Virus record (IMG/VR): IMGVR_UViG_3300050343_000243
Span: 15,463 to 79,462 of that record
Origin: a virus
Direction: 5' to 3' (one strand)
Length of the DNA stretch: 64,000 bases
The first letter of the stretch is position 1. Every line of letters begins with the position of its first letter. Both the position numbers and the translations under genes were made by a program. Below the pieces are notes generated by a model that worked only from the letters and a program-made list of their open reading frames with translations, was not told the origin of the DNA and did no database searches. Shown in pieces: positions 1-16,906 of the stretch.

Positions 1-586
1 AGTTTTTCCGGTTGACTCCAATAACAACCGTTTACAAGCAGCAGCGCAATGCTCTCATTTAGTGTCCACGAAGCCATACAGTGTATTTGGCTTACCTGTG
101 GAAAACTATATTATTTTATTGAGAAGTATTACGAGCTGCTTTTTGCCAAAAGTTCGCCTATAGGGGGCTAAAAATGGTACAAAATTTTAGACGTGTTTAA
201 TACCCTCTGTACCCGAACTACTGGTGCAACAAAAAAAATAACTACTGATACAACTGATGTTTCACCGCTCGCTTCGCTCGCTTGTTAACAACTGTTGTTC
301 GATTGCTTCGCAATCTCACGTTTAATCCTTTGTTCACGCAAGTCAACACACTTCAGTTAGTACACGATTGTGTAACACATCTGTTCTTCTGCATCGTGTG
401 TTTCCTACTTGCGCTCACATCTGTTAGCAGAAGTTACTACCGCTGTCTTTCATTCGTTGAAATCACACGCGAGAACTTATGCGTAACTTAAGTGAACCCT
501 TGATTCGCTTCGGGTACTACACCCTACCTCACCTACCCGTGCCCACTCCGTGGGCTTTATAACCATGTGTCTTTTACATAATTCAC

Positions 587-700
587 ATGTTTCTTGTATT
601 CAATTCATGGCTCGTTAGTAACGCGCTCATCATCAATGAATTCGGTAATCGTTACGCCTATACCTGGCGTGGTGAACCATTGTTCTGTTCAATTAAATGA
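587..700 (+). CDS. Small early protein (37 aa)
   Basis: ATG..TGA read by hand between hairpin copies 541 and 710; below ORF-track cutoff. Confidence 0.55.
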   Translation: MFLVFNSWLVSNALIINEFGNRYAYTWRGEPLFCSIK

Positions 701-755
701 ACCATAACTCCCCACTCTGTGGGGTTTTTCTTCATGTGTCTTCTATCTAATTCAC

Positions 756-911
756 ATGCGTAACTTCCAACTTCAAGTTCAATTCAACGGTGTTGGTGAA
801 CTCTATACGACCACGTGGTCACCACGTTCTTACAAGTCCGTATCCACGTTGTACAACATCTACACACGCAGGTTTCCCAATAATATCTATTGGATCTTAC
901 CAGTTGATTGA
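756..911 (+). CDS. Small early protein (51 aa)
   Basis: ATG..TGA between hairpin copies 710 and 919; AATTCACATG start context shared with 587 and 1496. Confidence 0.6.
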   Translation: MRNFQLQVQFNGVGELYTTTWSPRSYKSVSTLYNIYTRRFPNNIYWILPVD

Positions 912-1028
912 ACCTTATCCCCGCTCTGCGGGGTTTATCTTTCATTACTTCTTCGATGTAATTGCTTGTGCGTCTATCGCATTTCTTTTGCATCGTTGCT
1001 TGTCGGCATCTCTTTATATCTAAATTCA

Positions 1029-1208
1029 ATGACTAACAATCCATATGTGGATCAAATAATCCAGCAGACAGGTTGCACTGAACGTGAAGTTCGTGCCTTC
1101 TCTGTTCCTATGCGTCCGATGACCTTCCCTTGCGTCATCCACGGACGGACATTCGAATCACATGATGACTACATCAATGCGATGTATGACTACCTCGATT
1201 CAATGTAG
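1029..1208 (+). CDS. Hypothetical early protein
   Basis: MTNNPYV... part of ORF 966..1208; ends just before hairpin 1214. Confidence 0.65.
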   Translation: MTNNPYVDQIIQQTGCTEREVRAFSVPMRPMTFPCVIHGRTFESHDDYINAMYDYLDSM

Positions 1209-1260
1209 CTTTTACCCCCTCCGGGGGTTTTATTTGCGCGTGTTCTTCTTACTCACCACT

Positions 1261-1440
1261 GTGTCTAACACTTACACGCCTGTTCTCGTCGGTGCAACTA
1301 TCGGCCTCGGCCTTGCTGCCGTTGGCTTCTTCACCCTCCCCTGGTACCACGACTTCCTCGTCTGGTCCTACGCCTCACCTTGGACCTGGATCATTGGTAT
1401 CTCAGGTGGTGCTGCTCTAGCTATTGCTACAGACGATTGA
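1261..1440 (+). CDS. Small membrane protein (2 hydrophobic segments)
   Basis: GTG start after hairpin 1214; hydrophobic stretches. Confidence 0.6.
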   Translation: MSNTYTPVLVGATIGLGLAAVGFFTLPWYHDFLVWSYASPWTWIIGISGGAALAIATDD

Positions 1441-1495
1441 ACCTTAACCCCCTTCGGGGGGTTTATTTGCATGTGCAATTCATTTACCAATTCAC

Positions 1496-1693
1496 ATGCT
1501 TGCCACTAAAGCTATCCTTCACAAAGTCAACCGTACCCGTGGTCTCATCACTTGGCACTTCGTCGAGAATGAATCTAACGGTAGATGTAAAGCTATCCGC
1601 AATGACGGACGAGTGTTCGATTACTTGAACATCAAAGACATGCGAGAAGGCTACCGCTTCATGCGTGATACCTACGGTTTTCAACCTATGTGA
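1496..1693 (+). CDS. Hypothetical early protein
   Basis: ORF fills the space between hairpins 1447 and 1705. Confidence 0.7.
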   Translation: MLATKAILHKVNRTRGLITWHFVENESNGRCKAIRNDGRVFDYLNIKDMREGYRFMRDTYGFQPM

Positions 1694-1771
1694 ACAGAGG
1701 ATATGCCCCTTCCAGGGGCTTTTTCCTTCTTTGCCTTAATTGGCATTGTTCACTTATGATTTAATTTAACT

Positions 1772-1993
1772 ATGGCTTTTCGTATCCCTGGACGTAAAGA
1801 AAGCATCCGTGTCTTCGACCGTGTCAAATGTCTGGATACACAGTATGACGTCTTCGATGTTGGTGTACAACACGCTGACGGTGGTATCGACTCTGTAGTT
1901 GTCGGTGTATCTGCCTACTCTCTCAAGAAGGCTATTGCTGCACTCAACTCCAAGGCTGATGCCAAGGAAGCAGAAGCTCCCGCTACTGTCTAA
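1772..1993 (+). CDS. Hypothetical early protein
   Basis: ORF between hairpins 1705 and 2001. Confidence 0.7.
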   Translation: MAFRIPGRKESIRVFDRVKCLDTQYDVFDVGVQHADGGIDSVVVGVSAYSLKKAIAALNSKADAKEAEAPATV

Positions 1994-2045
1994 TGACTGC
2001 TCCCCCTTCGGGGGGTTTTTTCTTTTGTTTCGGACAACCGTTGAT

Positions 2046-2537
2046 TTACTTGTAGCGAATCATCAGGTTCTCGTCCTCATCCTCCGGTGCTAACGCTGCG
2101 GCGATGTCCATCAGACCTTTGCCTGCAAGTGATACACCTGTTGCTGGTAATACATACCTAGCACTAGCGGAGACTACGGGTTGTCCATATTTCATTGCTT
2201 GATGAGCAAGCATCGTTAACCGATCATTCGGATCAACTCCCTCAATAGTTCCCAACCCTCGTGTAATTGGTGATCCAACAATCTCACCTGTCATATTACG
2301 GACAACTCCCATAGGTGTGCCTCCCCTAGGGTCACCTTCGGGTAGGACAATGGCGTCCCGTACTTTGTCAGCGTACATATCATCAAACTGACGTAACTGT
2401 CCTCCAATAGGAGCAGCTGCGGCTACCACTCGTTCTCCAAGTGAACGCAGCATGTGATCAACCTGATCCTTAACTGTACGTGCATCTCCACGACGGTAAG
2501 TACGTCCGGGCTGATTACGATATGCCATTGTTACCAT
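2046..2537 (-). CDS. Hypothetical protein, counter-oriented, late-type promoter
   Basis: 163-aa ORF; TACAATAG at 2553-2560 (-). Confidence 0.75.
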   Translation of the reverse strand: MVTMAYRNQPGRTYRRGDARTVKDQVDHMLRSLGERVVAAAAPIGGQLRQFDDMYADKVRDAIVLPEGDPRGGTPMGVVRNMTGEIVGSPITRGLGTIEGVDPNDRLTMLAHQAMKYGQPVVSASARYVLPATGVSLAGKGLMDIAAALAPEDEDENLMIRYK

Positions 2538-2581
2538 TTATTTAACACCCCTCTATTGTATTCAATTAGGCTTATAAAGAA

Positions 2582-2767
2582 ATGATTAAGATACTAATAG
2601 CTACCCTGCTAATAATACCCCCTACCGTACTAATTCCCGCTACTGCAACACCTAATCTCTGCGAAGAGATAGAAGCTGTGCTGTGGGAAGCGGTAGAGGA
2701 TGGGTACATAAAAGAGCAGGTGGCCATAAGAGTGGCTGGTAACTGCTCACTCGAAACATACGAATAA
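2582..2767 (+). CDS. Small protein with signal-peptide-like N-terminus
   Basis: Hydrophobic N-terminus, two Cys. Confidence 0.55.
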   Translation: MIKILIATLLIIPPTVLIPATATPNLCEEIEAVLWEAVEDGYIKEQVAIRVAGNCSLETYE

Positions 2768-3139
2768 CAGCCATTACCCCTTCCAGGGGTTTTTTCAAAC
2801 GTTGTCCTTTGATAAATACGCATGACTACTGCTGTAATTATCTTCAGCTGGTTATTCGCCTTTTACGTAATAAAGACGGAAAACCCTTTTGGCTTATGAC
2901 AATGGTGCTATACGCAGCACTCACTATGGTTCTCCATCTTGAGCTAACTGCAACTCCAATTGTCCTACTGCCATTCATCTTCCCACGGGAAGAAATTGTT
3001 CCTATTTCTCTACAACCATGATTCAATTCGACTCACAAACTATCATCCTGGCTATCATTGGTATGACAGGACTATTTGCTACTGCAACAGTCCTTTCGTA
3101 CAGCTTTAAGCGCAACAGAACAGGTAACGGAAGGTACCA

Positions 3140-3361
3140 ATGAGAACATTAGATGGGAAAGAGCTCTCTGCTCTCAAAGACGAATATGCTTCTGCCGTTG
3201 TCGAAAAGATGACGAATGCAGAAGCTCGATCATATCTACGTCAGATTATCTACAACGATGTTGCTGTAGCTGACGGTCTGGACCTCTCTAAACGAATACT
3301 CAAAGTGTTCGGTGAAGAAGAGTACGACGATATGGTTGAGTTCGTCACCCGTAATAACTAG
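3140..3361 (+). CDS. Hypothetical protein
   Basis: 73-aa ORF with natural composition. Confidence 0.65.
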   Translation: MRTLDGKELSALKDEYASAVVEKMTNAEARSYLRQIIYNDVAVADGLDLSKRILKVFGEEEYDDMVEFVTRNN

Positions 3362-3443
3362 GTAGGGTATCCTCTCCTCTAAACCGAATAGCCTGGTCAA
3401 AAGATCAGGCTTAATATAAATCTAGTGATATATAAATAAGCAC

Positions 3444-3686
3444 ATGGGCTTCTATAACAATCCCTTCCAACTAGTGAACGACCTAGTGAACATCCCTTTC
3501 GGCTCCGATGTATATGTCATCTCTGATGAGAAATATAAGGAGTTAAAACAGAAACAGGCAAGAGATGAAATCTCTGTGCTCGAACGTAGGCTCGAATCTT
3601 ACGAAGTCGCGGCTACGAAACTACGAGATACCATCGCTTCTCTAAATGAGGAGCATGGTTTGCTCCCACCTCCTACTGATAAGTAA
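3444..3686 (+). CDS. Hypothetical coiled-coil protein
   Basis: 80 aa; VYVISD motif followed by coiled coil. Confidence 0.7.
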   Translation: MGFYNNPFQLVNDLVNIPFGSDVYVISDEKYKELKQKQARDEISVLERRLESYEVAATKLRDTIASLNEEHGLLPPPTDK

Positions 3687-3737
3687 CCAATGCCCCCTCC
3701 GGGGGCTTTTTAGTCAGTTGTTCTTTGATTGTCTCTT

Positions 3738-3983
3738 ATGACTATCATCTCAACTGCGAAACCTGTATCTCTTGAAGATGCTTTGGACATCGCTGAACAG
3801 CGTGCTTATGCCGCTAAAACACCTGCCTTCCCTCCTATTACCGACACTATTGTCTGGTTTAAACAGGTGGACTGGGCAGATGTACGTCAACGTGCTCGGG
3901 CTGGTGTCAACAATGTTGGTCTTGTCCTCGCTGTCGTTGGCGAGAAAGTACATGACTTTGGTGCCTTCTTGGCAAACGTCTGA
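3738..3983 (+). CDS. Hypothetical early protein
   Basis: ATG 18 nt after the TG box of hairpin 3692. Confidence 0.7.
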   Translation: MTIISTAKPVSLEDALDIAEQRAYAAKTPAFPPITDTIVWFKQVDWADVRQRARAGVNNVGLVLAVVGEKVHDFGAFLANV

Positions 3984-4176
3984 ACTTATGCCCCCCCTGG
4001 GGGCTTTTCTTTCATTTGTCCTACAAATGATTGCACATGTCATCAATCCTGATTGCACACCTGCAAAAACAAGCAGCTCGTCGCTTACGTATTGAGAAGC
4101 AATATGCGCTCGCTCGTAAGTAAGGAACCTGCCCCCTCTGGGGGCTTTGTTTTCCATTGTCTTCTATTTCTGAACA

Positions 4177-4323
4177 ATGGAACTCTATTCAGAACTTTCC
4201 TTGATCTCCGATTACAAGGAAGAAACCTACGACTGGATGTCATCTGATGACATTGACGTCGATGACTACGAGTACGTCCAGAACCTCGCTTCGGGCGTTG
4301 CCTCTCAATCTCGGTACTTCTGA
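4177..4323 (+). CDS. Small acidic early protein (48 aa)
   Basis: Read by hand between hairpins 4131 and 4330. Confidence 0.6.
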   Translation: MELYSELSLISDYKEETYDWMSSDDIDVDDYEYVQNLASGVASQSRYF

Positions 4324-4375
4324 ACTTATGCCCCCCCTGGGGGCTTTTCTTTAATTTGTAGTTCTCGTTATATTC

Positions 4376-4768
4376 ATGAGCGATTCAATCGAAAACACTC
4401 TTCCCAACTCAATCAGCACTGCTGATCTACAAAAGTTGGCAGACGCTGCTGCAGAAGCAGGGTCTAACAAGAAGACTGAAGAGGAGAAAACCTACGGTGG
4501 ACTCACCGTTGACGAACTCTGGGATGTCGCAGACGCAGGTTTAACTCTTATTCAAGAGAATTGTTCCCATCCCCTTGGACACAAGGTTGCTGCCATCATT
4601 GTCATGGGTAACATGCTCAATTGGCACAATAAGATGGCTGAGCAAATGATGGAAGATGGCGAATTTTCAAATGTTGCCGCTTGGCTCAAAGACGCAGGTA
4701 AATTCCAAGCCATCATGAACATCCTTCAAACCATTGAAATTGGTGACGACGACCCTACAACTCTCTGA
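4376..4768 (+). CDS. Hypothetical acidic protein
   Basis: 130-aa ORF between hairpins 4330 and 4777. Confidence 0.8.
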   Translation: MSDSIENTLPNSISTADLQKLADAAAEAGSNKKTEEEKTYGGLTVDELWDVADAGLTLIQENCSHPLGHKVAAIIVMGNMLNWHNKMAEQMMEDGEFSNVAAWLKDAGKFQAIMNILQTIEIGDDDPTTL

Positions 4769-5037
4769 TCCTTTGCCCCCCCCCTGGGGGCTTTTCTTTT
4801 ATTTGTACTTAGTAAAATACAAATGCAGTGGGCAGTTATGACCAACGCTCAAGAATGTCTTGGCGTATGGGTTTCATATGTAGATGCAGCACAGTTTGTA
4901 TCTGACAACTGTGAACATGAGAATGACATCTATGTCATCCCTTCCGAGGAGCTCACTAGTGAGACTGTCCTCTTGAATGCCTGACCTTGCCCCCTCTGGG
5001 GGCTTTCACAATCATTGTTCTTCAATTGATTGCGTTT

Positions 5038-5250
5038 ATGGCAACTTCCTTCGATTTCACCATCATCAGTGACACCACTGTACCTGGTATTTCGTTGGTC
5101 GTAAGTCATAACGAAGATGCATTCAGCTACATCACGGAAGAAGAGAACATGACCTGTCTAGATGATGGATCTGTTCCTCTTGCTACTGACAAAGTCGGTG
5201 ACTTCATTTCTGACGCTGGTTGGGATAAATACTCCTGCGAACTCGTTTGA
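5038..5250 (+). CDS. Hypothetical acidic protein
   Basis: MATSFDF... between hairpins 4989 and 5266. Confidence 0.7.
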   Translation: MATSFDFTIISDTTVPGISLVVSHNEDAFSYITEEENMTCLDDGSVPLATDKVGDFISDAGWDKYSCELV

Positions 5251-5311
5251 CTTCGATCAACCATTGCCCCCTCCGGGGGCTTTATCTCTCATTGTTCTTT
5301 ACATCACATTC

Positions 5312-5740
5312 ATGACTGACAAGACCTACGCATCATTCAACGCTCTCACCATCACTGGTCGCGTTTCTCATGCGGAAATGGTAGAAGGTAAGTATGGCAA
5401 GTTTCTTGCTGTAACTCTCCTGTCTGAATTGCAGAATGACGCACCTGCTGTCGCTGTTCAATTCAATCAAACTTCTGGTCTTCTCTTCTCCATCTTTGGT
5501 AAAGACGAGACTGCACTGCAGGGTCGTCTGGTTACTATCACTGGACATCTTGAGTCCTTCACCGAACTCTACTTCGATAAGAAGATCGGTAAGACCAAGC
5601 GCCTTCAGCGTCCCCGTCTCCAACTGTCCAAGGCAGTTGTTCTCGACGGTGGTCTTGGACCTAGCAAGCGTAAGGATGAGCCAGTCGATTCCGATATCGA
5701 GATCGATGAAGCTCCTGAACTTGCATCTGCAGAGTACTGA
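5312..5740 (+). CDS. OB-fold ssDNA-binding-like protein
   Basis: N..TITGR..., G.LV.ITG.L pattern and acidic C-terminal tail typical of SSB. Confidence 0.55.
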   Translation: MTDKTYASFNALTITGRVSHAEMVEGKYGKFLAVTLLSELQNDAPAVAVQFNQTSGLLFSIFGKDETALQGRLVTITGHLESFTELYFDKKIGKTKRLQRPRLQLSKAVVLDGGLGPSKRKDEPVDSDIEIDEAPELASAEY

Positions 5741-5751
5741 TGCAGCCACGT

Positions 5752-5778
5752 GGCACCCTTCGGGGTGCTGCGTTTTTT
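5752..5778 (+). terminator. Intrinsic terminator
   Basis: GGCACCC-TTCG-GGGTGCT followed by T-tract. Confidence 0.7.
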
Positions 5779-5805
5779 ATTTTTTAAAACTGACTAGGAC
5801 ATACT

Positions 5806-6015
5806 ATGACTACATCAAAAATCACTTATGAGATCCAAAAGAGCCGCTACGGACTCTATACATCAGTACAAACTGATGGAACTCGTATGGTCACAGGACC
5901 CACAGAAGACGCTTGTCGTTGGGTGACTGATAATATCCACATTCCGGTGCTTGAAGGCACCTACAAAGGCTTCACAAGTGTCCCTCGTAGCGCTACTGTT
6001 GACGGGAAACTATAA
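5806..6015 (+). CDS. Hypothetical protein
   Basis: 69-aa ORF ending VDGKL. Confidence 0.7.
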   Translation: MTTSKITYEIQKSRYGLYTSVQTDGTRMVTGPTEDACRWVTDNIHIPVLEGTYKGFTSVPRSATVDGKL

Positions 6016-6041
6016 ACTAGTAGTACTACTAATTAAAGCAG

Positions 6042-6218
6042 ATGAATATCCAACGCTTTGCCGGTGACAGCAAAATAATGCAAAAGATGGCAGCTGATAT
6101 GGCAGCCAACGAAGCACTCATGCGTCGTAATCAAAGCGAAGCTATGCAGAATGCATACCTAGCAAGATCTAGAGATATATCCGCTACTGGTATCACTAAT
6201 GCCGGAGCATTTTTTTAG
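6042..6218 (+). CDS. Small protein with RFAG motif (58 aa)
   Basis: Read by hand: MNIQRFAGDSK...; TAAACTAG upstream. Confidence 0.55.
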   Translation: MNIQRFAGDSKIMQKMAADMAANEALMRRNQSEAMQNAYLARSRDISATGITNAGAFF

Positions 6219-7092
6219 AACCATTCTTGCCATTGCCATTTGAACGCAGTACGTCGTGACCAATACTGACATCACCACCACCACTGTTAATAACTAGAGC
6301 ACGATCTCTATTCTCACCTGGGCTATCCATCCTCTCTGCTGTATTACCAGGACTTTCAAACCTAGTTGAGGCAATCTCTGGTGCAACTTCAGGACTATCG
6401 TATTGATAAGCGTTAGCTAACTCAAGTGGAGACAGACGATCAGCTTTCAGTCGCTTAAGAATGCTGTTCTTCAATGAATTGATCATTTCATCCCCTTCCC
6501 TGGCACCTTTAGTTCTATTCTCATACTTGCTTTCAAACATCATATTACTCCTGTCAGCAGACTGGCCACCATATTTCGCGTGAGGATTCTTATGTCCTCC
6601 ATCAAGCCCTGTCTCTTCATATAAAGAACCGGTGACTGGGTTCTTACCACCATCTAATTCCTCTATTCGATCTAAAGCACGAGCCAAACGTTCAGCACCA
6701 TCTAACTGTTCTACAGCACCAGAACGTAAACCAACTTTAGCTAGCTGGCTGGCACCTGCAGGGGCAAGAATCCGTTCACCTGCTTTACGTAACTCTTTTG
6801 TATGAGCACTAGGTGAACTAGGCATAACAACAGGTCCGTTCTTCTCTGCATCTATAGCCATCAACAAAGCATCGATGGTCTGTGGACTATCGCTACCCCC
6901 ATGCATCTGCTTGGGGATTAACTTCATTTTTCCCCGATCTTCAATTCTGCCATTAGTTAATTCGGCTAAGTCATAGTGACTACCTACTGCTTCTTGAAGC
7001 ATTGCAGCATCACCAAGACCCTGCAGTAGCTCAGGGCTGATATCACCGTTTTTAATTAATTGTGCTACTAATAATGCTTCATCGAAGACCAC
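6196..7092 (-). CDS. Hypothetical protein with HNH-like segment
   Basis: DGGHKNP..GG...N.......N..KG pattern. Confidence 0.6.
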   Translation of the reverse strand: MVFDEALLVAQLIKNGDISPELLQGLGDAAMLQEAVGSHYDLAELTNGRIEDRGKMKLIPKQMHGGSDSPQTIDALLMAIDAEKNGPVVMPSSPSAHTKELRKAGERILAPAGASQLAKVGLRSGAVEQLDGAERLARALDRIEELDGGKNPVTGSLYEETGLDGGHKNPHAKYGGQSADRSNMMFESKYENRTKGAREGDEMINSLKNSILKRLKADRLSPLELANAYQYDSPEVAPEIASTRFESPGNTAERMDSPGENRDRALVINSGGGDVSIGHDVLRSNGNGKNGSKKMLRH

Positions 7093-7262
7093 TCACATAC
7101 ATACTTATGATTATGTTTTTCCCATAAGTATCACTTACTACTCCTACATGTTATCTATAACTAATAACTTACTAAAATAAATAAAGAACCCAAAAATACC
7201 TATTAGTCAAAACAAATGCCCCCACTGGGGGCTTTATTCGTTGGTGTCCTTTGAATACATAT

Positions 7263-7823
7263 ATGAGAAGTTTCGCCAATGAAATGTATGTAGGTGTGGA
7301 AATCAATCCACCCTGCCCTCACTCTGTAGTTCACGCATTCGACCTAGACGACACGCTCTCTTCCAAACCTCAAGGGTTTGACAACACAGGAATGACCAAA
7401 GATGAATTCTTTGATGCCAGTCGTGACTTTGAGCCTGATATCGCTGTCAAAGATGTTGTTGAACTAATGCATATGCATGGTGATTGCATTGCTATCACTA
7501 CTGCCCGTCCACCTGAACGCTTGGCCGAGACAGTCCACTGGCTGTCAAAGCATGACATTCCTTTTGATCAAATCATTTTGAGCCAAGGAACTGTTCCTTC
7601 ATCCATTGCCAAACAAGCAATGCTTCAGAAGTTACAAGACGACTATCACGAAGTCGGCGTTCTATTTGATGACTCCCCTTACAACATTGAGGGTGCTCGT
7701 CTACAAGGCATATCAGCTATTCATCTACGTAAGAACGATGAGTACTGGGCCGCTAACCCCGAAGATGTTTACAGGTACGAAGATGAACAAGCACGAGAAG
7801 AAGCAAATCAAACTCATTGCTAA
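7263..7823 (+). CDS. HAD-superfamily phosphatase (PNKP 3'-phosphatase-like)
   Basis: FDLDDTL motif I, TARP motif II, FDDS motif IV. Confidence 0.85.
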   Translation: MRSFANEMYVGVEINPPCPHSVVHAFDLDDTLSSKPQGFDNTGMTKDEFFDASRDFEPDIAVKDVVELMHMHGDCIAITTARPPERLAETVHWLSKHDIPFDQIILSQGTVPSSIAKQAMLQKLQDDYHEVGVLFDDSPYNIEGARLQGISAIHLRKNDEYWAANPEDVYRYEDEQAREEANQTHC

Positions 7824-8001
7824 AGCAGACGCTTGCACCTCACGTGAGGAAGCTGTGAAACTTATACTCAAAGCAGAGAAACTTCGAGCTAAATTATTAG
7901 CGAAGAAGCTTTTATCTGATGCCAATTAACACTGTATTATTCGGTCTCGCAATGTTCCTCATTGGCGAGATCACCGGAATAATTATACCTACCTTACATT
8001 A

Positions 8002-8542: not shown

Positions 8543-8761
8543 ATGAACATCCCAATGGTGAGTATCCCTCAAGTCCAACTTGATCAACTCATTCGAGATC
8601 TGCAAAAAGCAGAAGGTTACTGCCGTAGGGCACGTCCTGCTTCACGTCATCCGTCTCGTGAAGAACTATTCGCAGAACCTACCGAGTTCTACTCCGGTGC
8701 ATCTGGCTTTGCCGGTGCAACTCTGCGGAATGCGATTCAAACTATCGAATCGTACCTGTGA
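8543..8761 (+). CDS. Hypothetical early protein
   Basis: Follows hairpin 8496. Confidence 0.7.
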   Translation: MNIPMVSIPQVQLDQLIRDLQKAEGYCRRARPASRHPSREELFAEPTEFYSGASGFAGATLRNAIQTIESYL

Positions 8762-8770
8762 TTGGTACAA

Positions 8771-8800
8771 GCCACTGCCTTCGGGTAGTGGCATTTTTTT
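8771..8800 (+). terminator. Intrinsic terminator
   Basis: GCCACTGCC-TTCG-GGTAGTGGC followed by T7. Confidence 0.85.
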
Positions 8801-8966
8801 ATTTAAACTACAAATATGTGTGAAATCTTATTTGCTTACTTAATTATCAACGCTATTGAAGCCACTCCTGGCCACATGCGGGTTGAACAGTTGCGTTATA
8901 CCGACGGTATCCATACTGAAACTCGTGTAATCCATGTTCCTACCCAAGAGTATTTAGACTGTTGGG

Positions 8967-9161
8967 ATGGACAAAGATGAACTAAAAACTAAAATTCTAG
9001 AGGAGATTGATGATGTCGAATATCGATACTACGCTCTCCCTCATTCTGGTCTTATCGCTGACTGGTTTATTCACTACTGGGATCTCGCAGAGCTTGTCAT
9101 GCAGTACTTTGACGAGCCTTTTTATAAGCCGCAAAAGTCAACTGAGGATCAGATAAAATAG
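8967..9161 (+). CDS. Hypothetical protein
   Basis: 64-aa ORF. Confidence 0.55.
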   Translation: MDKDELKTKILEEIDDVEYRYYALPHSGLIADWFIHYWDLAELVMQYFDEPFYKPQKSTEDQIK

Positions 9162-9182
9162 AAATATTGCTTCTATATTCTC

Positions 9183-9800
9183 ATGGGTAAAAATCGGTTT
9201 AAAGATAAGTCATACAACCCTAAATACGGCATTGGCGGGCGTGTAACAAGTGACGATCTAAGTATCGACGGTAGGAGTTGGGATTACCGTGACCCACAAA
9301 ATAAGAAAGAGAGTGCACATCGTGCAATGGATGACAAAAACCCGAACTCATATGACTACACCAATCCCTTGTACGATTACTCATACGGTGCAGTCCGTGA
9401 TGCTAGTGAGGCAGTAAACGTTACCAACGTCAATAGTAAAGGCGACGTTAAGCAACTCATCGACTACCTCCAGAAAGGTCCCGAAGATAAGCCTGCTGAA
9501 GTAAAAGTATTGCCTGTTACAGACAAAAAGGAGGTTGATGCTCCTCCTCCTAAGCCTTATGAGCAATCACCAGAACTAACTGAAGCTAAAGAGCGTGTCC
9601 AAGTTTGGGAAGATTCCAATGCTGGCACTGATCCCTCTCCCTTTGGAGGCGAAAGGTTGGACTTCAAGTCAATGGTCTTCGATGTTGATTCCAACAATGG
9701 CGCTTCTGCTCAAACATCTAGTGGAGAAAAAGCACAGAGCCAGCTCGAAGTATTCAAGAACAAATTAAAAAATCGATTACACTTCCGGCCAGTACTCTAA
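9183..9800 (+). CDS. Hypothetical hydrophilic protein, late-type promoter
   Basis: 205 aa; TAAAATAG at 9154-9161. Confidence 0.75.
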   Translation: MGKNRFKDKSYNPKYGIGGRVTSDDLSIDGRSWDYRDPQNKKESAHRAMDDKNPNSYDYTNPLYDYSYGAVRDASEAVNVTNVNSKGDVKQLIDYLQKGPEDKPAEVKVLPVTDKKEVDAPPPKPYEQSPELTEAKERVQVWEDSNAGTDPSPFGGERLDFKSMVFDVDSNNGASAQTSSGEKAQSQLEVFKNKLKNRLHFRPVL

Positions 9801-9871
9801 AAGCTACATAACTTGCGTAGCTTCGAAAGCCCAGTCAAGTACTGGGTTTTTTAGTGCCTACTACCAAAAAG

Positions 9872-9985
9872 CTACGCTAACTACGCTGGGAGCCCTATAT
9901 ACCTTTTAAAAAATAGATAGAAGGGGATACCCCAGTGTGCGTATATAAAAAAGAGATATATAGAGAAGATGTGTAGCAAACGTAG
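9872..9985. repeat. CTACG-N4-CTAC ... GTAG-N4-CGTAG inverted element, copy A (ori- or operator-like)
   Basis: CTACGCTAACTACGCT identical to 38333-38348; AT-rich core. Confidence 0.7.
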
Positions 9986-10212
9986 TTTTTACATATTTCT
10001 ATTGGGGTACTGTTTGGACAGTTCCCTTGCAGCGCAGCGGAATACGAGCAAAAAACCACGATTAGACTTAGCTACAGTAGCTCTGTGGCAAGAGTATTTA
10101 TACGCCATTAAATGATCGATTAATAAAAATTTACCGAGCCCAGTTCTTAATACAGAGCTTCCTTTCGGCTAGTAGCACAGTAACGTTTATGCGAATAATG
10201 AAATTCGCATTT

Positions 10213-10560
10213 ATGCAGCGGATAGACGTCAAGGTTGACGAACGATTTGCTGCTGTCCTCAAAGGGTACTGCGCTTATTGGGGTCTGACTCTGGGAGAAC
10301 TCATGTATGAGGCTGCCAAACAACACGTACACTCATCTGCGCAAGTTTGTACACTTGCAGATGACTTAATGCGAAAGCACGGAGTAATTGCTGACAAGCG
10401 TTCAGCCAAGCACTGTTACGGCTATCTTTGCCGTTGCTGCAAGCATCAGCTTATGTGCAGAACTGGCCTGTATCAAAACGAATGGGAGATTGCTGACGAA
10501 CACAAGCACTTGCAAAAAGATCAATCAAACGATTACCCCCTTGACTCCTATAAACAATGA
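10213..10560 (+). CDS. Putative RHH-like regulator with Cys-rich C-terminus (paralog 1)
   Basis: Beta-strand plus helices at N-terminus; CYG..C..C.H...C.TG.Y...WE shared with next gene. Confidence 0.65.
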   Translation: MQRIDVKVDERFAAVLKGYCAYWGLTLGELMYEAAKQHVHSSAQVCTLADDLMRKHGVIADKRSAKHCYGYLCRCCKHQLMCRTGLYQNEWEIADEHKHLQKDQSNDYPLDSYKQ

Positions 10561-10874
10561 AAAAACTTCAAGTCCAAATGCCTGACCCATGTCATGCGGT
10601 ATTAAAGGACTATGCCAATGCTTGGGGCATGACAATGTCTGAAGTGATGTATGAAGCCACTCGTTGCTTTATGCACAAACATTCAGAGAATTGTGGATAC
10701 ATCAATTCATTATTTACATTTAGACGTATCAAAGCTGATAAACGACTTACCAAAGAATGTTATGGACATCCTTGTTTTGCCTGTGAGCACTTAGTTGCTT
10801 GTAAAACAGGACAATACAAAGGTGGCTGGGAAATGTCTGAAAAAGTTTCTGAGTACATCAATCTGAAAGCATAA
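10557..10874 (+). CDS. Putative RHH-like regulator with Cys-rich C-terminus (paralog 2)
   Basis: Aligns by eye with upstream gene (AVLK.Y...WG.T..E.MYEA). Confidence 0.65.
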   Translation: MKKLQVQMPDPCHAVLKDYANAWGMTMSEVMYEATRCFMHKHSENCGYINSLFTFRRIKADKRLTKECYGHPCFACEHLVACKTGQYKGGWEMSEKVSEYINLKA

Positions 10875-11243
10875 TTTTTTTTGCCTGAAAGCTTAACAAT
10901 AAGTTAGACGATTGATATCTGTATGTCTCGATATATTTAATCAAAAAAATGTATCAACGCAAACGTTGCGCTTGTGGCGTGAATAATCATACTTTCATTG
11001 TCGCTTGTCTGCGGCCTTCACAACTGATCGAATACATGACTACAAATAAACACCCACAAATCTCACATTTAATTGTCTCGTTTATGACAAGCATGAATAG
11101 CATGAGCAGGGTGTTGTTACACAACAAGTCTCAAAAATAAAGGCACACCTAGTTGCTTCACTTGTATAGCAATTATTGCCCCCTCCGGGGGCTTGATCCT
11201 TTCGTGCGCTTTGAAAAAAGCGTGTTCTTTATATGTCAATTCA

Positions 11244-12188
11244 ATGCCCGCAAATTTCACATCTGGCTGGCTCGGCAACGGCGAACGTGCATGGCACGAA
11301 ATGGGGGTCGTCACCGACGGCACCCTGCCAGCGCGAGAAGCGTTTGAAACTGCCGACGCTTTATTCACAGTCGAAAAGCGAGAACTTCTCGTTCCAGTCA
11401 CATTTAACGGACAAGCCTCAGTTGCCGCATCAGGCACCTACGGAGTTGTCCGTACTGACAGTCAAGGATTACTCGGTGTTGTCAGCAAGCAATATGAAAT
11501 CGTTCAAAACGATTCGCTCCTTCGGATGGCTGAATTCATCCGCGAGGAGGCAGACATGGACTGCGTCATCGTTCTATCGGACGGAGCCAAAGTCTGCTTT
11601 ACCGCCACACTCCGTGGTGCGGAGACGGACATCGTCCCTGGCGACACAGTCAAACGACGCATCGTTGGCTATCTAGGACACGACGGCAAGACTGGTTGTG
11701 GTGCAAAGTTCACCAACATCCGTGTTGTCTGTCAAAACACACTGACTGCCGCTCTCAATGAGAGTGGTGCTCAATCAAGCATCACCCATAAGGGTACTGC
11801 CAACGCTAACTTCGATGCTCTTATCAACAGTATTGACGTAGCACGGCAAGACTTTGCCGCTGAATGTGATCTGATGCGTGAGTTTTCACGTACCCACATG
11901 AGTGCTACTGGCTTCAACGAGTTTGCTGACCACGTTTACAACATCAGTGAAGGTGAAGTATTTCGCAAACGTCAGAAGCTAGAGCAAGCATTCCGTGCTG
12001 GTTATGGTTCGGAGTATGCCTCATTCTCACTATGGAATGGCTTGAATGCCATCACCCAAGTAGAAACAAGCACCCGTGGCACTACAGCTGCCAAGGGTAG
12101 AGCACAGTTTGCACGTGGCACCTTTGGTTCTGGTGCTGTTATCAGCAAAAAAGCTTTCTCTGTTGCACGTGACCTAGTTACTGGCTGA
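11244..12188 (+). CDS. DUF932 / TIGR03299-like protein
   Basis: AWH..G, LGVVS..Y..VQN, HDG, IRVVCQNTL, LWN..NA.T motifs. Confidence 0.85.
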   Translation: MPANFTSGWLGNGERAWHEMGVVTDGTLPAREAFETADALFTVEKRELLVPVTFNGQASVAASGTYGVVRTDSQGLLGVVSKQYEIVQNDSLLRMAEFIREEADMDCVIVLSDGAKVCFTATLRGAETDIVPGDTVKRRIVGYLGHDGKTGCGAKFTNIRVVCQNTLTAALNESGAQSSITHKGTANANFDALINSIDVARQDFAAECDLMREFSRTHMSATGFNEFADHVYNISEGEVFRKRQKLEQAFRAGYGSEYASFSLWNGLNAITQVETSTRGTTAAKGRAQFARGTFGSGAVISKKAFSVARDLVTG

Positions 12189-12264
12189 TAGAAATACAAT
12201 TGGGAGTACTTAATTGTGCTCCCTATTTGTTAGCTTAAGGTTTCATCCATAATATGAATTATTT

Positions 12265-12606
12265 ATGTTATCTAAAATCTTTGGTGTTACTAGTGCCGTT
12301 CTATTGGCTCTGTCTACACCCGCAACCGCTGCAAGCACTATGCTTACGAGCTGGTATGGACCATACTTTCACGGTCGCCTCACTGCGAACGGAGAAGTGT
12401 ATGACCAAATGGGATTCACCGCAGCACATAAAACTCTCCCTTTCGGAACGAGGCTACGGGTCTGTTATCAAGGATGTGTCAACGTCCGAATTAACGACCG
12501 TGGTCCGTATATCGGGGCTCGTGAGCTTGACCTCTCTCTGGGTGCTGCTAAAACAATTGGATTAGTAGATCCAGGCGTTGCAAATGTTCAGGTTACTTAT
12601 CTCTAA
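12265..12606 (+). CDS. rlpA: RlpA-like lytic transglycosylase (DPBB)
   Basis: SWYGP.FHGR.TANGE, TAAHKTLPFGT, INDRGPY..R.LDLS. Confidence 0.92.
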   Translation: MLSKIFGVTSAVLLALSTPATAASTMLTSWYGPYFHGRLTANGEVYDQMGFTAAHKTLPFGTRLRVCYQGCVNVRINDRGPYIGARELDLSLGAAKTIGLVDPGVANVQVTYL

Positions 12607-12904
12607 TTAACCACAATCGTCTGCTCCCGAAGATAAACTAAAAACAGTTCAAGGAGATACAAATGTCTAGAACAACTAAACATCCCATTACCAAAAATTG
12701 CTTTACTGATTTAGAGCACGAACGCAAAGAACGTAAACAACAACGCGCACAGAATATCGAGCTACTTAATGCTTCACTCGACTTAATCGTTAAAGAAAAT
12801 TAAGTATTTATACGCCGTTATTTGTGCATTTCTTAACATAGACTAGTTAAGTAGCGTTAACCACACGTGAGTATTACCCAAAAATAAAACACCGCACTAA
12901 TTAA

Positions 12905-13990
12905 ATGGCTTCATCAATCTCAGTAGCACGCACAGGCGTGCAATCAAACTGGGAGGAGTTTTGTAAGTGGGTAACATCAACTGACAACCGCCTTTATGTG
13001 GGCTGGTTTGGCATCTTGATGATTCCTACGCTCCTCGCAGCAACTATTTGCTTCATTATCGCCTTTGTAGGCGCACCACCTGTTGATATCGATGGCATTC
13101 GTGAACCAGTTGCAGGATCGCTCCTGTACGGAAATAACATTATATCGGGAGCAGTTGTCCCGTCTAGCAACGCAATCGGTCTGCATTTTTACCCAATCTG
13201 GGAAGCGGCTTCATTGGATGAATGGCTTTACAACGGAGGCCCATTCCAACTCGTTGTCTTCCACTTTCTCATCGGTATCTTCGCTTACATGGGACGCGAA
13301 TGGGAACTTAGCTACCGGCTAGGTATGCGCCCCTGGATCTGCGTTGCATACAGCGCACCTGTGGCTGCAGCTTCTGCCGTATTTCTTGTCTATCCTTTTG
13401 GACAGGGATCCTTCTCTGACGCAATGCCTCTCGGCATCTCCGGTACATTCAACTATATGTTGGTGTTCCAGGCAGAGCATAATATCCTTATGCATCCGTT
13501 CCACATGTTGGGCGTGGCTGGTGTCTTCGGCGGCAGCTTATTCAGTGCTATGCACGGTTCTCTTGTTACATCATCTTTGGTGCGTGAAACCACCGAAAGC
13601 GAGTCCCAGAACTACGGTTATAAGTTCGGACAAGAGGAAGAGACCTACAACATCGTTGCAGCTCATGGCTACTTCGGTCGATTGATCTTCCAATATGCTT
13701 CGTTCAACAACTCCCGTTCATTGCACTTCTTCTTAGCAGCATGGCCTGTCGTTGGTATTTGGTTCACCGCATTAGGTGTATCCACAATGGCCTTCAACTT
13801 GAACGGCTTCAACTTCAACCAGTCCATTAACTCTGCTGACGGTCACGTCATCAATACCTGGGCAGACATTCTGAACCGCGCAGGTCTTGGAATGGAAGTG
13901 ATGCATGAGCGTAACGCTCACAACTTCCCTTTGGATCTTGCCTCTGCAAGTACCAGTCAAGTCGCATTGACTGCACCATCCATCGGTTAA
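12905..13990 (+). CDS. psbA: Photosystem II D1 protein
   Basis: Full-length D1 ([31 protein letters not shown]); uninterrupted. Confidence 0.99.
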
Positions 13991-14012
13991 TATCAACTCG
14001 GAAGAGTTCCAC

Positions 14013-14036
14013 AGCCTCACTTCAGTGGGGCTTTTT
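14013..14036 (+). terminator. psbA terminator
   Basis: AGCCTCAC-TTCA-GTGGGGCT followed by T-tract. Confidence 0.85.
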
Positions 14037-14052
14037 AATATCAAGAATTAAT

Positions 14053-14271
14053 ATGGCTAAAAGTGAATTCATCGATCAACTAGCATCAGCTATGGAACAA
14101 CTAGGATTTACATCTGATGTTCCCTTAGATATTGCTATTGCCGGTGGCCAGGTCTACGAGATCGAAGGTACTGGCACTAAGTGGTCACCTAAAAAAGGTA
14201 CCCGCAAATACAACAATGATGCATTCATTGTTATCCGTAAAGTTACACCTGTTATATCTTCCAATGCTTGA
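14053..14271 (+). CDS. Hypothetical protein
   Basis: 72-aa ORF. Confidence 0.7.
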   Translation: MAKSEFIDQLASAMEQLGFTSDVPLDIAIAGGQVYEIEGTGTKWSPKKGTRKYNNDAFIVIRKVTPVISSNA

Positions 14272-14476
14272 ACTTCTCACTTATTACGTGATCGGAGGAG
14301 CACTACTTGTTGGTGCCCCTGCTGTATTTTTCCTGATTGCCTTTATGCCTGCATTGCAAAACACAAAAGGTAGGATGGTTGGATATAAAGATCACAAGCA
14401 ATACGGTGACATCTCTTCCTATGAGAATGCACCTGTAGATCAAACAAAGTTTTATCTGGTGCTGTCAGATGATTAA
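14264..14476 (+). CDS. Small membrane protein
   Basis: MLELLTYYVIGG... hydrophobic N-terminus; part of ORF 14132..14476. Confidence 0.6.
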   Translation: MLELLTYYVIGGALLVGAPAVFFLIAFMPALQNTKGRMVGYKDHKQYGDISSYENAPVDQTKFYLVLSDD

Positions 14477-14708
14477 AGTACTATTAGCTGCTTCATTGCT
14501 ACTTGCTGGATCATCAGTACTAGCAGAAGAAACACGTTGGCCTAGCTATTGCATACGTTCAGTAGAACAGAATGCTGCTGGATATCTATTAGATATGCCT
14601 GGCTGGCCTTATGGTATGGATAACAAACCAATGCAAGTCTCATCATTAGATAGGCTTGACAATACAAACGAATGTTCACCTAACGACCCAAGAATAAGCA
14701 ATGATTAA
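14469..14708 (+). CDS. Secreted hypothetical protein
   Basis: Signal-peptide-like N-terminus. Confidence 0.55.
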   Translation: MIKVLLAASLLLAGSSVLAEETRWPSYCIRSVEQNAAGYLLDMPGWPYGMDNKPMQVSSLDRLDNTNECSPNDPRISND

Positions 14709-14955
14709 AGCACTCTTCAGTCTTATGTTCGCTGCACTTATGTGGGTGCAAGTCCCACAGTGGAGTGATGACTGGAGCAAGTGCTCCGTTGATGTCCCTG
14801 ACGTTGCTTGTCATTGGTATATCACGGCACCTGATTCAACTATGGGTGAAGGATTTAGCTGGGCTAATGCACCTTGGTTCTCTGTTGAAGGCTTGCGTGA
14901 CGTAAGTCAACTAACAGATACCGTGCAATCTATACAAACAACCCATAATCTGTAA
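14701..14955 (+). CDS. Cyanophage-type hypothetical protein
   Basis: QVPQW.DDWS.C.VDVPD..CHWYI motif. Confidence 0.7.
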   Translation: MIKALFSLMFAALMWVQVPQWSDDWSKCSVDVPDVACHWYITAPDSTMGEGFSWANAPWFSVEGLRDVSQLTDTVQSIQTTHNL

Positions 14956-14974
14956 GTCCTTGCTATATTTAATC

Positions 14975-15072
14975 AGGGACTAATAAGTCTCTAGAGTAGT
15001 AAGCAAGGATAATAACTTGTTTGTTTCATAGGTTGTATCAATGGGTGTAAGCCTCACTTCGGTGGGGCTTTT
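14975..15072 (+). ncRNA. Candidate small RNA
   Basis: Extended -10 TGCTATATT at 14961-14969, two hairpins, terminator at 15049-15072, no ORF. Confidence 0.35.
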
Positions 15073-15105
15073 CATTAAGTGTTAACTGTACCCCAATAAA
15101 TAATT

Positions 15106-15390
15106 ATGAAAAGAGAATCTCCGGAGTTTTGGGGAGCCTTATGGGGCTCATCTATTGGGTGTGGCGTTATCGCCATACTCGTACTGCTTACATCATGCAA
15201 AGTAAATGACAGATTTGCGGCAAGTATCATCGACGATTCAGCTAACACAAGCTGTGTCGCTGGGTATGTGGAAGATACGCCCGGTAAAGGCACGATTGAT
15301 ATCTATACCGAGACCATCGGTACTGAAAGTATCTCCAACGTTAGCATTGAAATTGCAGATGAAATCTCTCACTCAATCGGCAACTGCTAA
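15106..15390 (+). CDS. Hypothetical membrane or lipoprotein
   Basis: Hydrophobic segment ending LTSC. Confidence 0.55.
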   Translation: MKRESPEFWGALWGSSIGCGVIAILVLLTSCKVNDRFAASIIDDSANTSCVAGYVEDTPGKGTIDIYTETIGTESISNVSIEIADEISHSIGNC

Positions 15391-15529
15391 TGGACTTTAC
15401 TCAAGAAGAACTAAATGATATTCGTGCTGCAGTAGTTCTCTATATGCAGAACAATATCTCAATTAGAAATCCTCGTTACCAAGAGTTCGAGGTTATACTA
15501 AAGAAGCTTAATAAAACATTACAAGAGAA

Positions 15530-15721
15530 ATGACTACAATTACAGAAGACGGCGGAAGAACAAATATCTACGCCAAAGAACCACAAGTACAAGTAATGGA
15601 GGTCTCCGTGACACACAACGAAATCGCTGAAAAACTAAATGGACGGCTTGCAATGCTGGGTGTTATCGCTGCCATTGGTGCTTATGCTGTCACCGGTCAG
15701 CTGGTTCCCGGCGTATTTTGA
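15530..15721 (+). CDS. hli: High-light-inducible protein
   Basis: AEKLNGRLAMLG and TGQLVPGVF motifs. Confidence 0.96.
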   Translation: MTTITEDGGRTNIYAKEPQVQVMEVSVTHNEIAEKLNGRLAMLGVIAAIGAYAVTGQLVPGVF

Positions 15722-16261
15722 TTGGTCTAATGGGTTCTATTCAGGACCTGCACTAATGATTAAACTATCGCAATGGTAGTTGTGAATGCCCCCTCCGGGG
15801 GCTATATTAAATAGGTGCCCGGCGATTGGGCCTGAACATATATATTTCAATTGAATGCAAATATCAAGAGAGCAGCTTGCGGAACTCCGTGAGCTCATTG
15901 AAGACACAGCAGAATACTTCTGCGACGAAAACAAATTGTCTGGCGAACTCGCATGGACATGCATCGAATGTTTAGCCACTGCAAAGCTGGCTGAAATGCA
16001 AGGTCTCATCACAGCGGATCAAGCCTGATGAAGGATTCCCGTGGTCTTGCAGAACTATTCATGCACTTTGTTCGTCAACTGATAATCGAAAATGAAGCGG
16101 ACAACCCACAAGAGTTGTACCAACTAGTGGCTGATCGCAGTCAAGCAGAAGCCAATCGATTGATGGCTTTAGATCCTGATCGCAACAAATAAAACTTATG
16201 CCCCCTCCGGGGGCTTGATTCTTCCATGCCCATATGGGCTTCAACTACATCCAAACTAACT

Positions 16262-16906
16262 ATGACTATCGCTCCTGTTAATACCTCTGTTCTTTCTCAA
16301 TTCATTGGCGAAGTACAAGACAGCTACGACATGATGATCGGCATCGCTCTTGTCAAAGAGTCCGATGCAGTGTTCTTCGAGTACCAGGGCGACAAGCAAC
16401 AGCCTGTGCCTCTCATGCTGTCGAACGGTCGTCCTCTCACATACCTGCGGAACGTGCGTCTGGGTGGTATCAGCATTGCCGAAGACATTGGTGAGTTCAA
16501 CTCCACCAAGCTCAACATCATTCTCGAAGCTGGCGGCAAGCGTGTACTTGTTACCTCTGGTCTCACTACTCTCTGGTCTCAAGCTGTGATGACTGGCCTC
16601 ATGGGCATGTTCAACAGCTACGACCTTGATACTCCTTTCACTCTCAACACATGGAAGGGTACCTCGAAGATGCGACCTGCATTCGCTTCTATCAAGCTTG
16701 CTGGTGACGTCAAAGTTTCTGATCAGATGCTGTACGACCAGCTCTGTGAACTCCGTAGTGATCGCGCTGCCGACAAGATCAAAGCTGTCATGCGTGACTC
16801 CGTAGAGATCCTGGCCGCTGGCCTGGCTGGTGGTATGCCTGCCATCAGTGTTGTTGTCGAAGAGCCCAAAGCTCTTACCTCTGTTGAGGAAGCTCTCGAC
16901 TTCTGA
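16262..16906 (+). CDS. Hypothetical protein with strongly biased codon use
   Basis: Follows hairpin 16200; long ORF ending LDF. Confidence 0.8.
   Translation: MTIAPVNTSVLSQFIGEVQDSYDMMIGIALVKESDAVFFEYQGDKQQPVPLMLSNGRPLTYLRNVRLGGISIAEDIGEFNSTKLNIILEAGGKRVLVTSGLTTLWSQAVMTGLMGMFNSYDLDTPFTLNTWKGTSKMRPAFASIKLAGDVKVSDQMLYDQLCELRSDRAADKIKAVMRDSVEILAAGLAGGMPAISVVVEEPKALTSVEEALDF

Follow-up and report, generated by a model that had tools for sequence, protein, structure and literature searches.

The genome of an uncultured marine relative of Synechococcus phage S-EIV1 carries, between nearly all of its small early genes, a repeated composite unit in which a GC-rich hairpin with a U-rich tail is followed at a fixed distance by a conserved word, hereafter the TG box. 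The stretch of DNA analyzed here, referred to as the window, comprises 64,000 nucleotides and corresponds to bases 15463-79462 of the 79,462-bp IMG/VR record IMGVR_UViG_3300050343_000243, which is rated complete. We propose, with a probability of roughly 0.45, that the unit represents a terminator-start joint resembling the promoter-early stem-loop (PeSL) cassettes of T4-type phages, in which the box, as a signal of a non-sigma70 type, would set the 5' end of the next message at its TG.

According to this proposal, the GC hairpin and the U-rich tail would serve as an intrinsic (Rho-independent) terminator, or as a 3'-end hairpin, of the upstream message, whereas the box would mark the start of the next message, with a 5' end at or beside the invariant TG. 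This end could be made by a fresh transcription start or possibly by cleavage, and it would leave a leader of about 18 nt that has no Shine-Dalgarno sequence. The unit may double as a seam for gene swapping, because a 39-bp pair of near-identical sequences and a 15-mer hairpin present at seven sites span or form parts of it. A run of so many terminators would also imply that restarts or antitermination are needed. We further consider the idea, which we think is rather unlikely, that the U-rich tail and the TG box, which together form a block of about 23 nt as measured from the hairpin, constitute a new class of early start signal without -10/-35 logic. Such a signal would be read by the host polymerase in an undescribed mode or by a factor that is delivered together with the DNA.

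Geometry of the units in the window

A scan for perfect GC stems of 5-7 bp with loops of 3-5 nt identified 20 co-oriented hairpins on the + strand between positions 541 and 16214, all with the C-rich arm first and starting at positions 541, 710, 919, 1214, 1446, 1705, 2002, 2776, 3692, 3990, 4131, 4330, 4775, 4989, 5266, 7218, 8496, 11178, 15788 and 16200. The initial annotation of the sequence had listed 21 copies; 20 hairpins were recovered in this range, and besides them there are a different, longer terminator at 5748-5773 and an additional copy at 31977. The TG is located at +13/+14 after the stem in 17-18 of the 20 copies, in agreement with the 17 counted initially, the exceptions being 919, 15788 (+14/15) and 2002, where an offset of one depends on how the stem is delimited. 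The distance from the G to a start codon is exactly 18 nt in the eight copies for which this had been claimed (541, 710, 2776, 3692, 4131, 4330, 4775 and 5266). The claimed range of 17-21 nt for further copies also stands, although there are six of these rather than five (1214, with GTG, 1446, 3990, 4989, 7218 and 8496), giving 14 in total. The pattern CCC-N3-GGGGGS-T-N11-TGY occurs 12 times in the window, always on the + strand, compared to 0.00 expected from 100 shuffles.

The 39-bp pair is located at 3981-4019 and 4321-4359, differs by one mismatch and spans the stop codon, the hairpin and the box of two neighboring cassettes, while the 15-mer hairpin GCCCCCTCCGGGGGC is found at seven sites in the window genome. 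Both suggest that units were recently duplicated or underwent gene conversion with one another.

Conservation of the unit in related phages

The closest isolate by terminase is S-EIV1, with 54% identity, whereas the next matches reach only about 24%. Near-identical DNA was found in 19 sequencing runs from 15 marine studies (one possibly the source sample), and proteins closely related to the terminase of the window genome are encoded on at least 230 IMG/VR contigs. Relatives were retrieved through the terminase and, for four IMG/VR contigs, through a family-consensus pattern; a scan of IMG/VR with the hairpin-plus-box pattern of the window genome itself gave single chance matches only, and no relatives were found with an SSB-like early protein as search bait. 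The units were collected from seven genomes, namely the window genome (G000), the complete relatives G001 (83,953 bp) and G005 (80,431 bp), which show about 70-78% nucleotide identity to it in conserved genes, and the four further IMG/VR contigs.

Units head small early genes in all six relatives, and the seven genomes together hold 81 units with 43 distinct 5' arms (e.g., GAGCGC, GGACCC, CCGCCC, GGCGTC and CCCGTC) that always pair, with the same stem-to-box spacing throughout. The stem covariation described in the initial annotation is thereby extended from the window to the relatives, and its more general claim of a covarying element of fixed geometry tied to early gene starts is confirmed. 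Downstream of the stem, the consensus reads TTT(A/T)TTT, about five less conserved bases and the box TGT(T/C)CTTT(A/G), whose G is always placed 14 nt past the stem and which is tied to genes of the early class. The first ATG is found 17-23 nt after the G of the box, most often at 18 nt. Loop lengths range from 3 to 6 nt, with 4 nt in 47 of the 81 units (e.g., TAAT, TAAC, TATC and TGTC). The triloop with a central template-strand purine, which had been emphasized at first, is valid for the window genome and does not hold in the relatives, where the loop is mostly 4 nt and has no fixed purine.

A formal count of the covariation is circular, because the units were selected by perfect pairing, and the fair test is therefore one that starts from the box. 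In three genomes, 17 of the 33 TGTYCTTT words on the + strand have a perfect hairpin that ends exactly 13 nt before the G, and the words without a hairpin are mostly located inside genes; on the - strand, none of the 17 words has such a hairpin. Likewise, among 163 GC hairpins in the seven genomes, TGT is found at +13 in 62 cases compared to about 3 for each other offset. A covariance model built from 36 units gave 90 matches in 416 kb, all co-oriented within their own genome, and no match in S-EIV1 or in L038, the left-arm segment of the window genome (the first 15.6 kb of the contig). In S-EIV1, where the TG-box unit is absent, two copies of an element of its own, CCGTCAAAGCGGGT followed by a 7-bp covarying stem with a GTGCAAA loop, precede small early genes at positions 43480 and 43774 of the S-EIV1 record (- strand). 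A full-text literature search gave no description of the unit for S-EIV1 or its relatives, and no family in Rfam matched it.

Loss of the TG spacing in homologous genomes had been named at the outset as the result that would reduce the units to ordinary terminators. The spacing is kept in all 81 units from the seven genomes, and for this reason the units do not appear to be merely ordinary terminators. It seems to us highly improbable that the box and its spacing have persisted without function, by common descent and recombinational homogenization of terminators. The stems and loops are admittedly common to the units within a genome, as illustrated by the seven identical 15-mers and the 39-bp pair, but the 12-nt spacer diverges freely in sequence while its length is constant. 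Furthermore, the box is absent where only termination is needed, at terminators without a co-oriented downstream gene (2002, before a convergent gene, and 36106), and also at the longer terminators 5748 and 8771.

The hairpin as a probable RNA terminator

The hairpin itself is very likely an RNA terminator or a 3'-end hairpin of the upstream message, judging from its sequence and from the comparison among genomes. The mean hairpin energy is -10.6 kcal/mol, T is found at the positions +1, +2 and +3 after the stem in 74, 62 and 75 of the 81 units, respectively (77-93%), and 66 units have 5-7 T within the first 8 nt. A single unit out of 81 has A as the second base after the stem, which is where a -10 hexamer would need it, and we read the T-rich bases as the U-tract pattern of an intrinsic terminator, not as a -10 hexamer. 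Stop codons are located 8-14 nt before the stem, and 48 terminator-like sites were identified in positions 1-17000 compared to 12.3 expected. The U-tract is absent at 11178, 15788 and 16200, as was noted early on, and at 31977. The RNA data on positions 1-18000 (one oligo-dT run; three other runs are probably DNA) consist, psbA aside, of sparse short contigs, with those from the RNA run being 151-280 nt long.

The initial annotation had favored another role for the hairpin, which is that it is extruded from the DNA and forms the core of an early promoter like those of phage N4, with a start at the +14 G and a polymerase or factor as its reader. The covarying stems combined with a rigid TG spacing, as if the hairpin were a ruler, the retention of the hairpin in every first unit, and the location of the array next to the probable genome end, as in N4 (PMC4496689), are all in line with this idea. 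However, the loops here are 3-6 nt long, mostly 4 nt, with no fixed base, the hairpin center is at about -21, each genome has 15-20 copies, and no giant polymerase protein was found. The conserved T-run and the wobble pairs also point to an RNA hairpin: in the model-based alignment, misalignments aside, the non-Watson-Crick pairs are five G.T in the + sense and no A.C, which suggests, although weakly since the pairs are few and the model favors G.U, that the + strand RNA folds rather than the template strand. The structure-dependent promoter is thus not borne out, and we consider it very unlikely. A transcription start at the conserved G is possible.

A probable genome end and a possible long early transcript

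The array starts next to what is probably a physical end of the genome. The G001 contig has an exact 304-bp repeat at both ends, which corresponds to window positions 201 to about 490 and starts at ATACCCTCTGT (window 201), within a block of about 90 nt (window 158-245) that is nearly invariant in three genomes and represents the most conserved intergenic block of the family. Because the terminal repeat maps to this region and begins in the conserved block, we infer that a genome end is probably located near 201, just left of the first hairpin, and that the block around this position is a candidate for the terminase cutting site. The leader before the first unit (201-540, + strand) is homologous to the 304-bp repeat and contains several TGTTC-like words. 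It also includes a covarying hairpin at 301-315, with the stem GATTGC/GCAATC here and different stems in G001, G005, L216 and L023, and with conserved flanks (TGTTGTTC before, TCACGTTT after). The rightward genes extend from about 540 to a two-way terminator at 36106, and the leftward genes from just left of the window start, across the contig junction, to the same terminator.

As the main alternative to the terminator-start joint, we considered the possibility, doubtful in our opinion although more plausible than a promoter of the N4 type, that the early genes are transcribed into one long RNA from a promoter to the left of the array. The hairpins would then be leaky terminators or 3'-end stabilizers, and the box would act at the RNA level. 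It is consistent with this scenario that every unit points one way, only along the direction of early transcription, that there are no promoter-like hexamers within the units, and that a sigma70-like site (TTGGCT-16-TATTAT, 87-114), which is conserved in G001, lies upstream. However, this site is located to the left of the probable genome end, and it would be placed at the far end of the linear genome if the 304-bp terminal repeat is physical.

One version of this hypothesis is that the box is a boxA-like loading site for the host NusB/NusE proteins, which would make the polymerase resist the next hairpins. The word UGUUCUUUA is one base from the E. coli rrn boxA UGCUCUUUA (8/9) and fits the core common to the B. 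subtilis boxA AUGAUCUUUGAAA, which is also preceded by a small hairpin (PMC13753749). The box consensus fits the general boxA core UGNUCUUUR after a hairpin (PMC13753749), but 20 of the 81 units have C at the fourth position, and there is no ACAA tail. In the rrn leaders of 23 picocyanobacteria, however, the universal boxA-like word is ACCTGGACAA, and the phage word GTTCTTTA is found in few of them; GAACCTTGACAA is located in the spacer, and GTTCTTTAA or a variant with one mismatch is present in 10 of the 23 leaders, inside a block conserved for other bases. Since a NusB-NusE reader from the host should prefer the host's own word, the boxA lead is weakened, and we rejected the identification of the box with the host rrn boxA.

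Another version is that the box forms a pyrimidine-rich site at which the ribosome (protein S1) would land on leaders that have no Shine-Dalgarno sequence. The box is located 10-19 nt before the AUG and the leader is poor in G. In the relatives, the leader often folds into a hairpin of 4-6 bp that pairs the AUG, with mean z values of -1.4 to -2.5 compared to shuffles, and this excess suggests that structure at the RNA level is under selection there; in the window genome such hairpins are not significant (mean z -0.22). Speaking against an RNA-level box in general, well-expressed phage genes (psbA, capsid) have no box, and the word is just about 1.7-fold more frequent than the reversed-pattern control in five host genomes, for which reason we also rejected a general host word.

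A further difficulty for a box that acts as RNA is the behavior of the TG, which is the most constant feature of the unit. It is kept in three variant units and their orthologs, where a second small hairpin stands in for TTCTTT (e.g., 15788, 16200 and G005 56025), and because of this it suggests an RNA end, that is, a start site or a cut, rather than a binding word.

Several other identities for the box were tried and rejected. If it were a -35 element, a MotA box or an extended -10 element, the geometry would fail, with the -10 or the start site located within the open reading frame (ORF), and there is no -10 hexamer. With a leaderless start at the ATG, the would-be -10 element (TAYATN) would be without its last T. 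Pairing with the host 16S rRNA is limited to one 8-nt match in helix 23, at chance level. The published RNase E consensus (RN-WUU) does not fit the logo of the unit around the TG. Finally, in an integron attC-like reading, the upstream AAC and downstream GTT pair over 3-4 bp only, and no integrase was seen. Sigma70-like promoter sites are fewer than expected in positions 1-17000 (13 compared to 29.2), and only two TAnnnT hexamers are located in window positions 190-640.

Search for a reader

Several observations weigh against the terminator-start joint, and most of them concern the factor that would read it. For the earliest genes, the reader would have to be available from the moment of injection, and an RNA polymerase elsewhere in the genome, as envisaged in the initial annotation, was not detected: none of the ORFs scanned against Pfam and PHROGs, including all of at least 300 aa, matches an RNA polymerase family. 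The largest ORFs encode 963, 917 and 827 aa, of which the first and the last are tail-like, and none has a polymerase family match. The 917-aa ORF has no family in Pfam or PHROGs, no usable Atlas match and only 4 homologs. We rejected it as a hidden polymerase or shared reader, because the unit-bearing relatives G001 and G005 have no homolog of it, and neither has S-EIV1.

The sigma factor encoded by the phage (60764-61702, - strand) does not seem to be the reader either. It is a full-length member of the sigma70 family with regions 1.2, 2, 3 and 4, its gene is located within the block of head genes with a TATAAT upstream, at about 61743, and it shows 61% identity to two group-2 sigma factors from a marine Synechococcus. 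G001 and G005 also encode this factor, the latter in two frames, possibly due to a frameshift, but S-EIV1, which likewise has no units, does not. Despite this co-occurrence, the candidate was also rejected: it is a host-type group-2 factor with a normal region 4, and because it has kept the motif for -10 reading, YAYWWIRQGITRAI, with normal residues, it is not expected to recognize the box. Its natural targets are the left-arm promoters with the motif TAGAATAG, which is found about 25 nt before five structural gene starts on the - strand (48998, 52412, 55622 and 62106, as well as 79345 in rotated coordinates, a site about 117 nt to the left of the first base of the window) and is a candidate for a late promoter -10 element. 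Its distance to the late ATG implies similar late leaders of about 18 nt.

The host polymerase fares no better, since no TAnnnT hexamer is enriched at any offset between the stem and the ATG of the units and the host sigma-A holoenzyme should therefore not start there. Also, a self-contained cassette should work either way round, but the two genes that run in reverse within the array are preceded by AT-rich regions of a sigma70-like type and not by inverted units. Finally, the first unit of every array keeps its hairpin without a preceding gene, and the neighbor upstream of unit 7218 is a - strand gene, so that the hairpin directly ends no + strand gene. On these grounds, the hairpin may be more than the terminator of its neighbor, or it may insulate the array.

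Individual units and neighboring genes

The array of units, all of them on the + strand, opens with two units of standard geometry, unit 1 (541-589; hairpin 541-555, TG 568-569, ATG 587, G+18) and unit 2 (710-758; hairpin 710-724, TG 737-738, ATG 756, G+18). In unit 3 (919-953), the hairpin (919-933) is followed by a T-run and a degenerate box, with TTAC for TTGT, and the next ATG is distant, at 1029. Unit 4 (1214-1263; hairpin 1214-1228, TG 1241-1242) leads to a GTG at 1261 (G+19), and unit 5 (1446-1498) has a UUCG loop in its hairpin (1446-1463), a TG at 1474-1475 and an ATG at 1496 (G+21). Unit 6 (1705-1774; hairpin 1705-1719) has a TG at 1732-1733 without the TTCTTT box and an ATG at 1772; it is the sole unit with a sigma70-like pair, TTGCCT-18-TATGAT at 1731-1760. 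The hairpin at 2002-2015 has a long T-run and no proper box, and it stands at the end of a block of + strand genes, before a convergent - strand gene, where it would work as a terminator only.

The spacing of G+18 is found again in the units at 2776-2824 (hairpin 2776-2790, TG 2803-2804, ATG 2822), 3692-3740 (hairpin 3692-3706, TG 3719-3720, ATG 3738), 4131-4179 (hairpin 4131-4145, TG 4158-4159, ATG 4177), 4330-4378 (hairpin 4330-4344, TG 4357-4358, ATG 4376) and 4775-4825 (hairpin 4775-4791, TG 4804-4805, ATG 4823). The unit at 5266-5314, with its hairpin at 5266-5280, the full box TGTTCTTTA at 5293-5301 and an ATG at 5312 (G+18), is the top match to the family model in the window, with 46.3 bits. 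Slightly different distances are observed at 3990-4039 (hairpin 3990-4004, TG 4017-4018, ATG 4037, G+19), 4989-5040 (hairpin 4989-5003, TG 5016-5017, ATG 5038, G+21), 7218-7265 (hairpin 7218-7232, TG 7245-7246, ATG 7263, G+17) and 8496-8545 (hairpin 8496-8510, TG 8523-8524, ATG 8543, G+19). The longer terminator (5748-5784) has a hairpin of 11 pairs at 5748-5773 with a UUCG loop, followed by a long T-run and no box.

Three variants are located further downstream. At 11178-11246, the hairpin (11178-11192) has no T-run and the TG (11205-11206) opens a second small hairpin, after which the box TGTTCTTTA is found at 11223-11231, followed by the ATG at 11244 of a DUF932 gene. At 15788-15857, the hairpin (15788-15802) is followed by TATATT, the TG at +14/15 opens a second hairpin and the ATG is at 15855; orthologous variants are present in G001 and G005. 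At 16200-16264, the hairpin (16200-16214) again has no T-run, the TG (16227-16228) opens a second hairpin and the ATG at 16262 is the likely start. The extra copy of the 15-mer hairpin at 31977-31991, outside the range 541-16262, has neither a T-run nor a box.

Two genes in the array deserve mention. The cassette at 4037-4123 (+ strand) encodes a 28-aa peptide rich in arginine and lysine (…QKQAARRLRIEKQ…), which is, speculatively, reminiscent of the arginine-rich motifs for RNA binding, of which that of lambda N is an example. Upstream of gene 3444 (3375-3443), there is a different hairpin (about 3392-3411) together with two TATAAAT-like boxes, the second of which ends 6 nt before the ATG, and this gene may have a near-leaderless start of the sigma70 type within the array.

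The window encodes psbA (12905-13990; about 80% nucleotide identity to the copies in T4-like cyanophages), ribonucleotide reductase, ThyX, a VapE-type primase-helicase, a family-A DNA polymerase, the large terminase, the major head protein and the sigma70-family protein. Auxiliary genes in this S-EIV1-type genome include thyX (22688-23320) and a gene for a polynucleotide kinase/phosphatase-like protein (7263-7823). A protein of the T5orf172/MUG113 nuclease family is encoded at 35061-35507, immediately 3' of the polymerase gene, and a glutamine riboswitch aptamer (35727-35781, + strand; Rfam RF01739, 50.9 bits compared to a gathering score of 35) precedes a small ORF at 35795-35992. In the left arm, the first genes beside the control region (L038:14154-15314 and L038:11263-14016, both on the - strand), which encode proteins of 386 aa and 917 aa, respectively, belong to no detectable family. 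This flank is hypervariable, because the gene for the 917-aa protein is absent from close relatives.

Implications and comparison with known systems

If the TG marks start sites, the units would define a kind of promoter that does not follow the sigma70 rules, in a group of hosts lacking the Rho factor, and if they do form a new class of start signal, it would be one that a globally abundant lineage of marine cyanophages employs at 15-20 sites in each genome. If they are sites at the RNA level, they would instead represent a dense, repeated signal for antitermination or translation. Either way, the units mark seams of exchange for early host-takeover genes. These seams aid the annotation of many small uncharacterized genes of marine cyanophages, and the one invariant TG per gene provides a precise handle on RNA 5' ends.

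The similarities to known systems are partial in each case. The promoters of phage N4, like the units, consist of a short GC hairpin with a small loop, located near the genome end and upstream of early genes, at a fixed distance from a conserved purine. However, the N4 promoters have conserved stem and loop bases (-11 purine, -10G, -8G and +1C) and a hairpin centered at -11, and there are only three of them, which need an injected virion polymerase of 3500 aa (PMC4496689), whereas no stem base is conserved in the 81 units and the conserved G is located about 21 nt from the loop center rather than about 11.

Antitermination sites of the rrn and lambda types combine a boxB hairpin with a boxA (PMC13753749, PMC3177189). 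The units resemble them in that a hairpin is followed by a single-stranded word, which matches the E. coli boxA at 8/9 positions, and in that they precede terminators in the transcript. They differ in that the boxA-like word in host rrn is another one (ACCUGGACAA, GAACCUUGACAA), in that the unit is repeated after every gene and not once per operon, and in that no N-like protein was identified. With intrinsic terminators, the units share the GC-rich stem of 5-7 bp, the short loop, the immediate U-rich tract and the location shortly after stop codons, but they add a conserved 9-nt box at a fixed 13 nt downstream, three copies have no U-tract, and the first unit of each array follows no gene.

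The nearest described kind of element is the PeSL cassette of T4-type phages (Arbiol et al., 2010, PMC2839356; Comeau et al., 2014, PMC4122927). Both are composites of a stem-loop and a gene-start signal, placed in many co-oriented copies between small and variable early genes, and both exist in lineage-specific versions located at points of gene gain, loss and duplication, as at 3981-4019 and 4321-4359 in the present genome. PeSLs contain a sigma70 promoter, TTGACA-N17-TATAAT or close variants of it (PMC2839356, PMC4122927), whereas the units described here have no -35/-10 pair, only about 32 nt from the stem to the ATG, a rigid distance from the stem to the box, and a cyanobacterium as the host of the phage that carries them.

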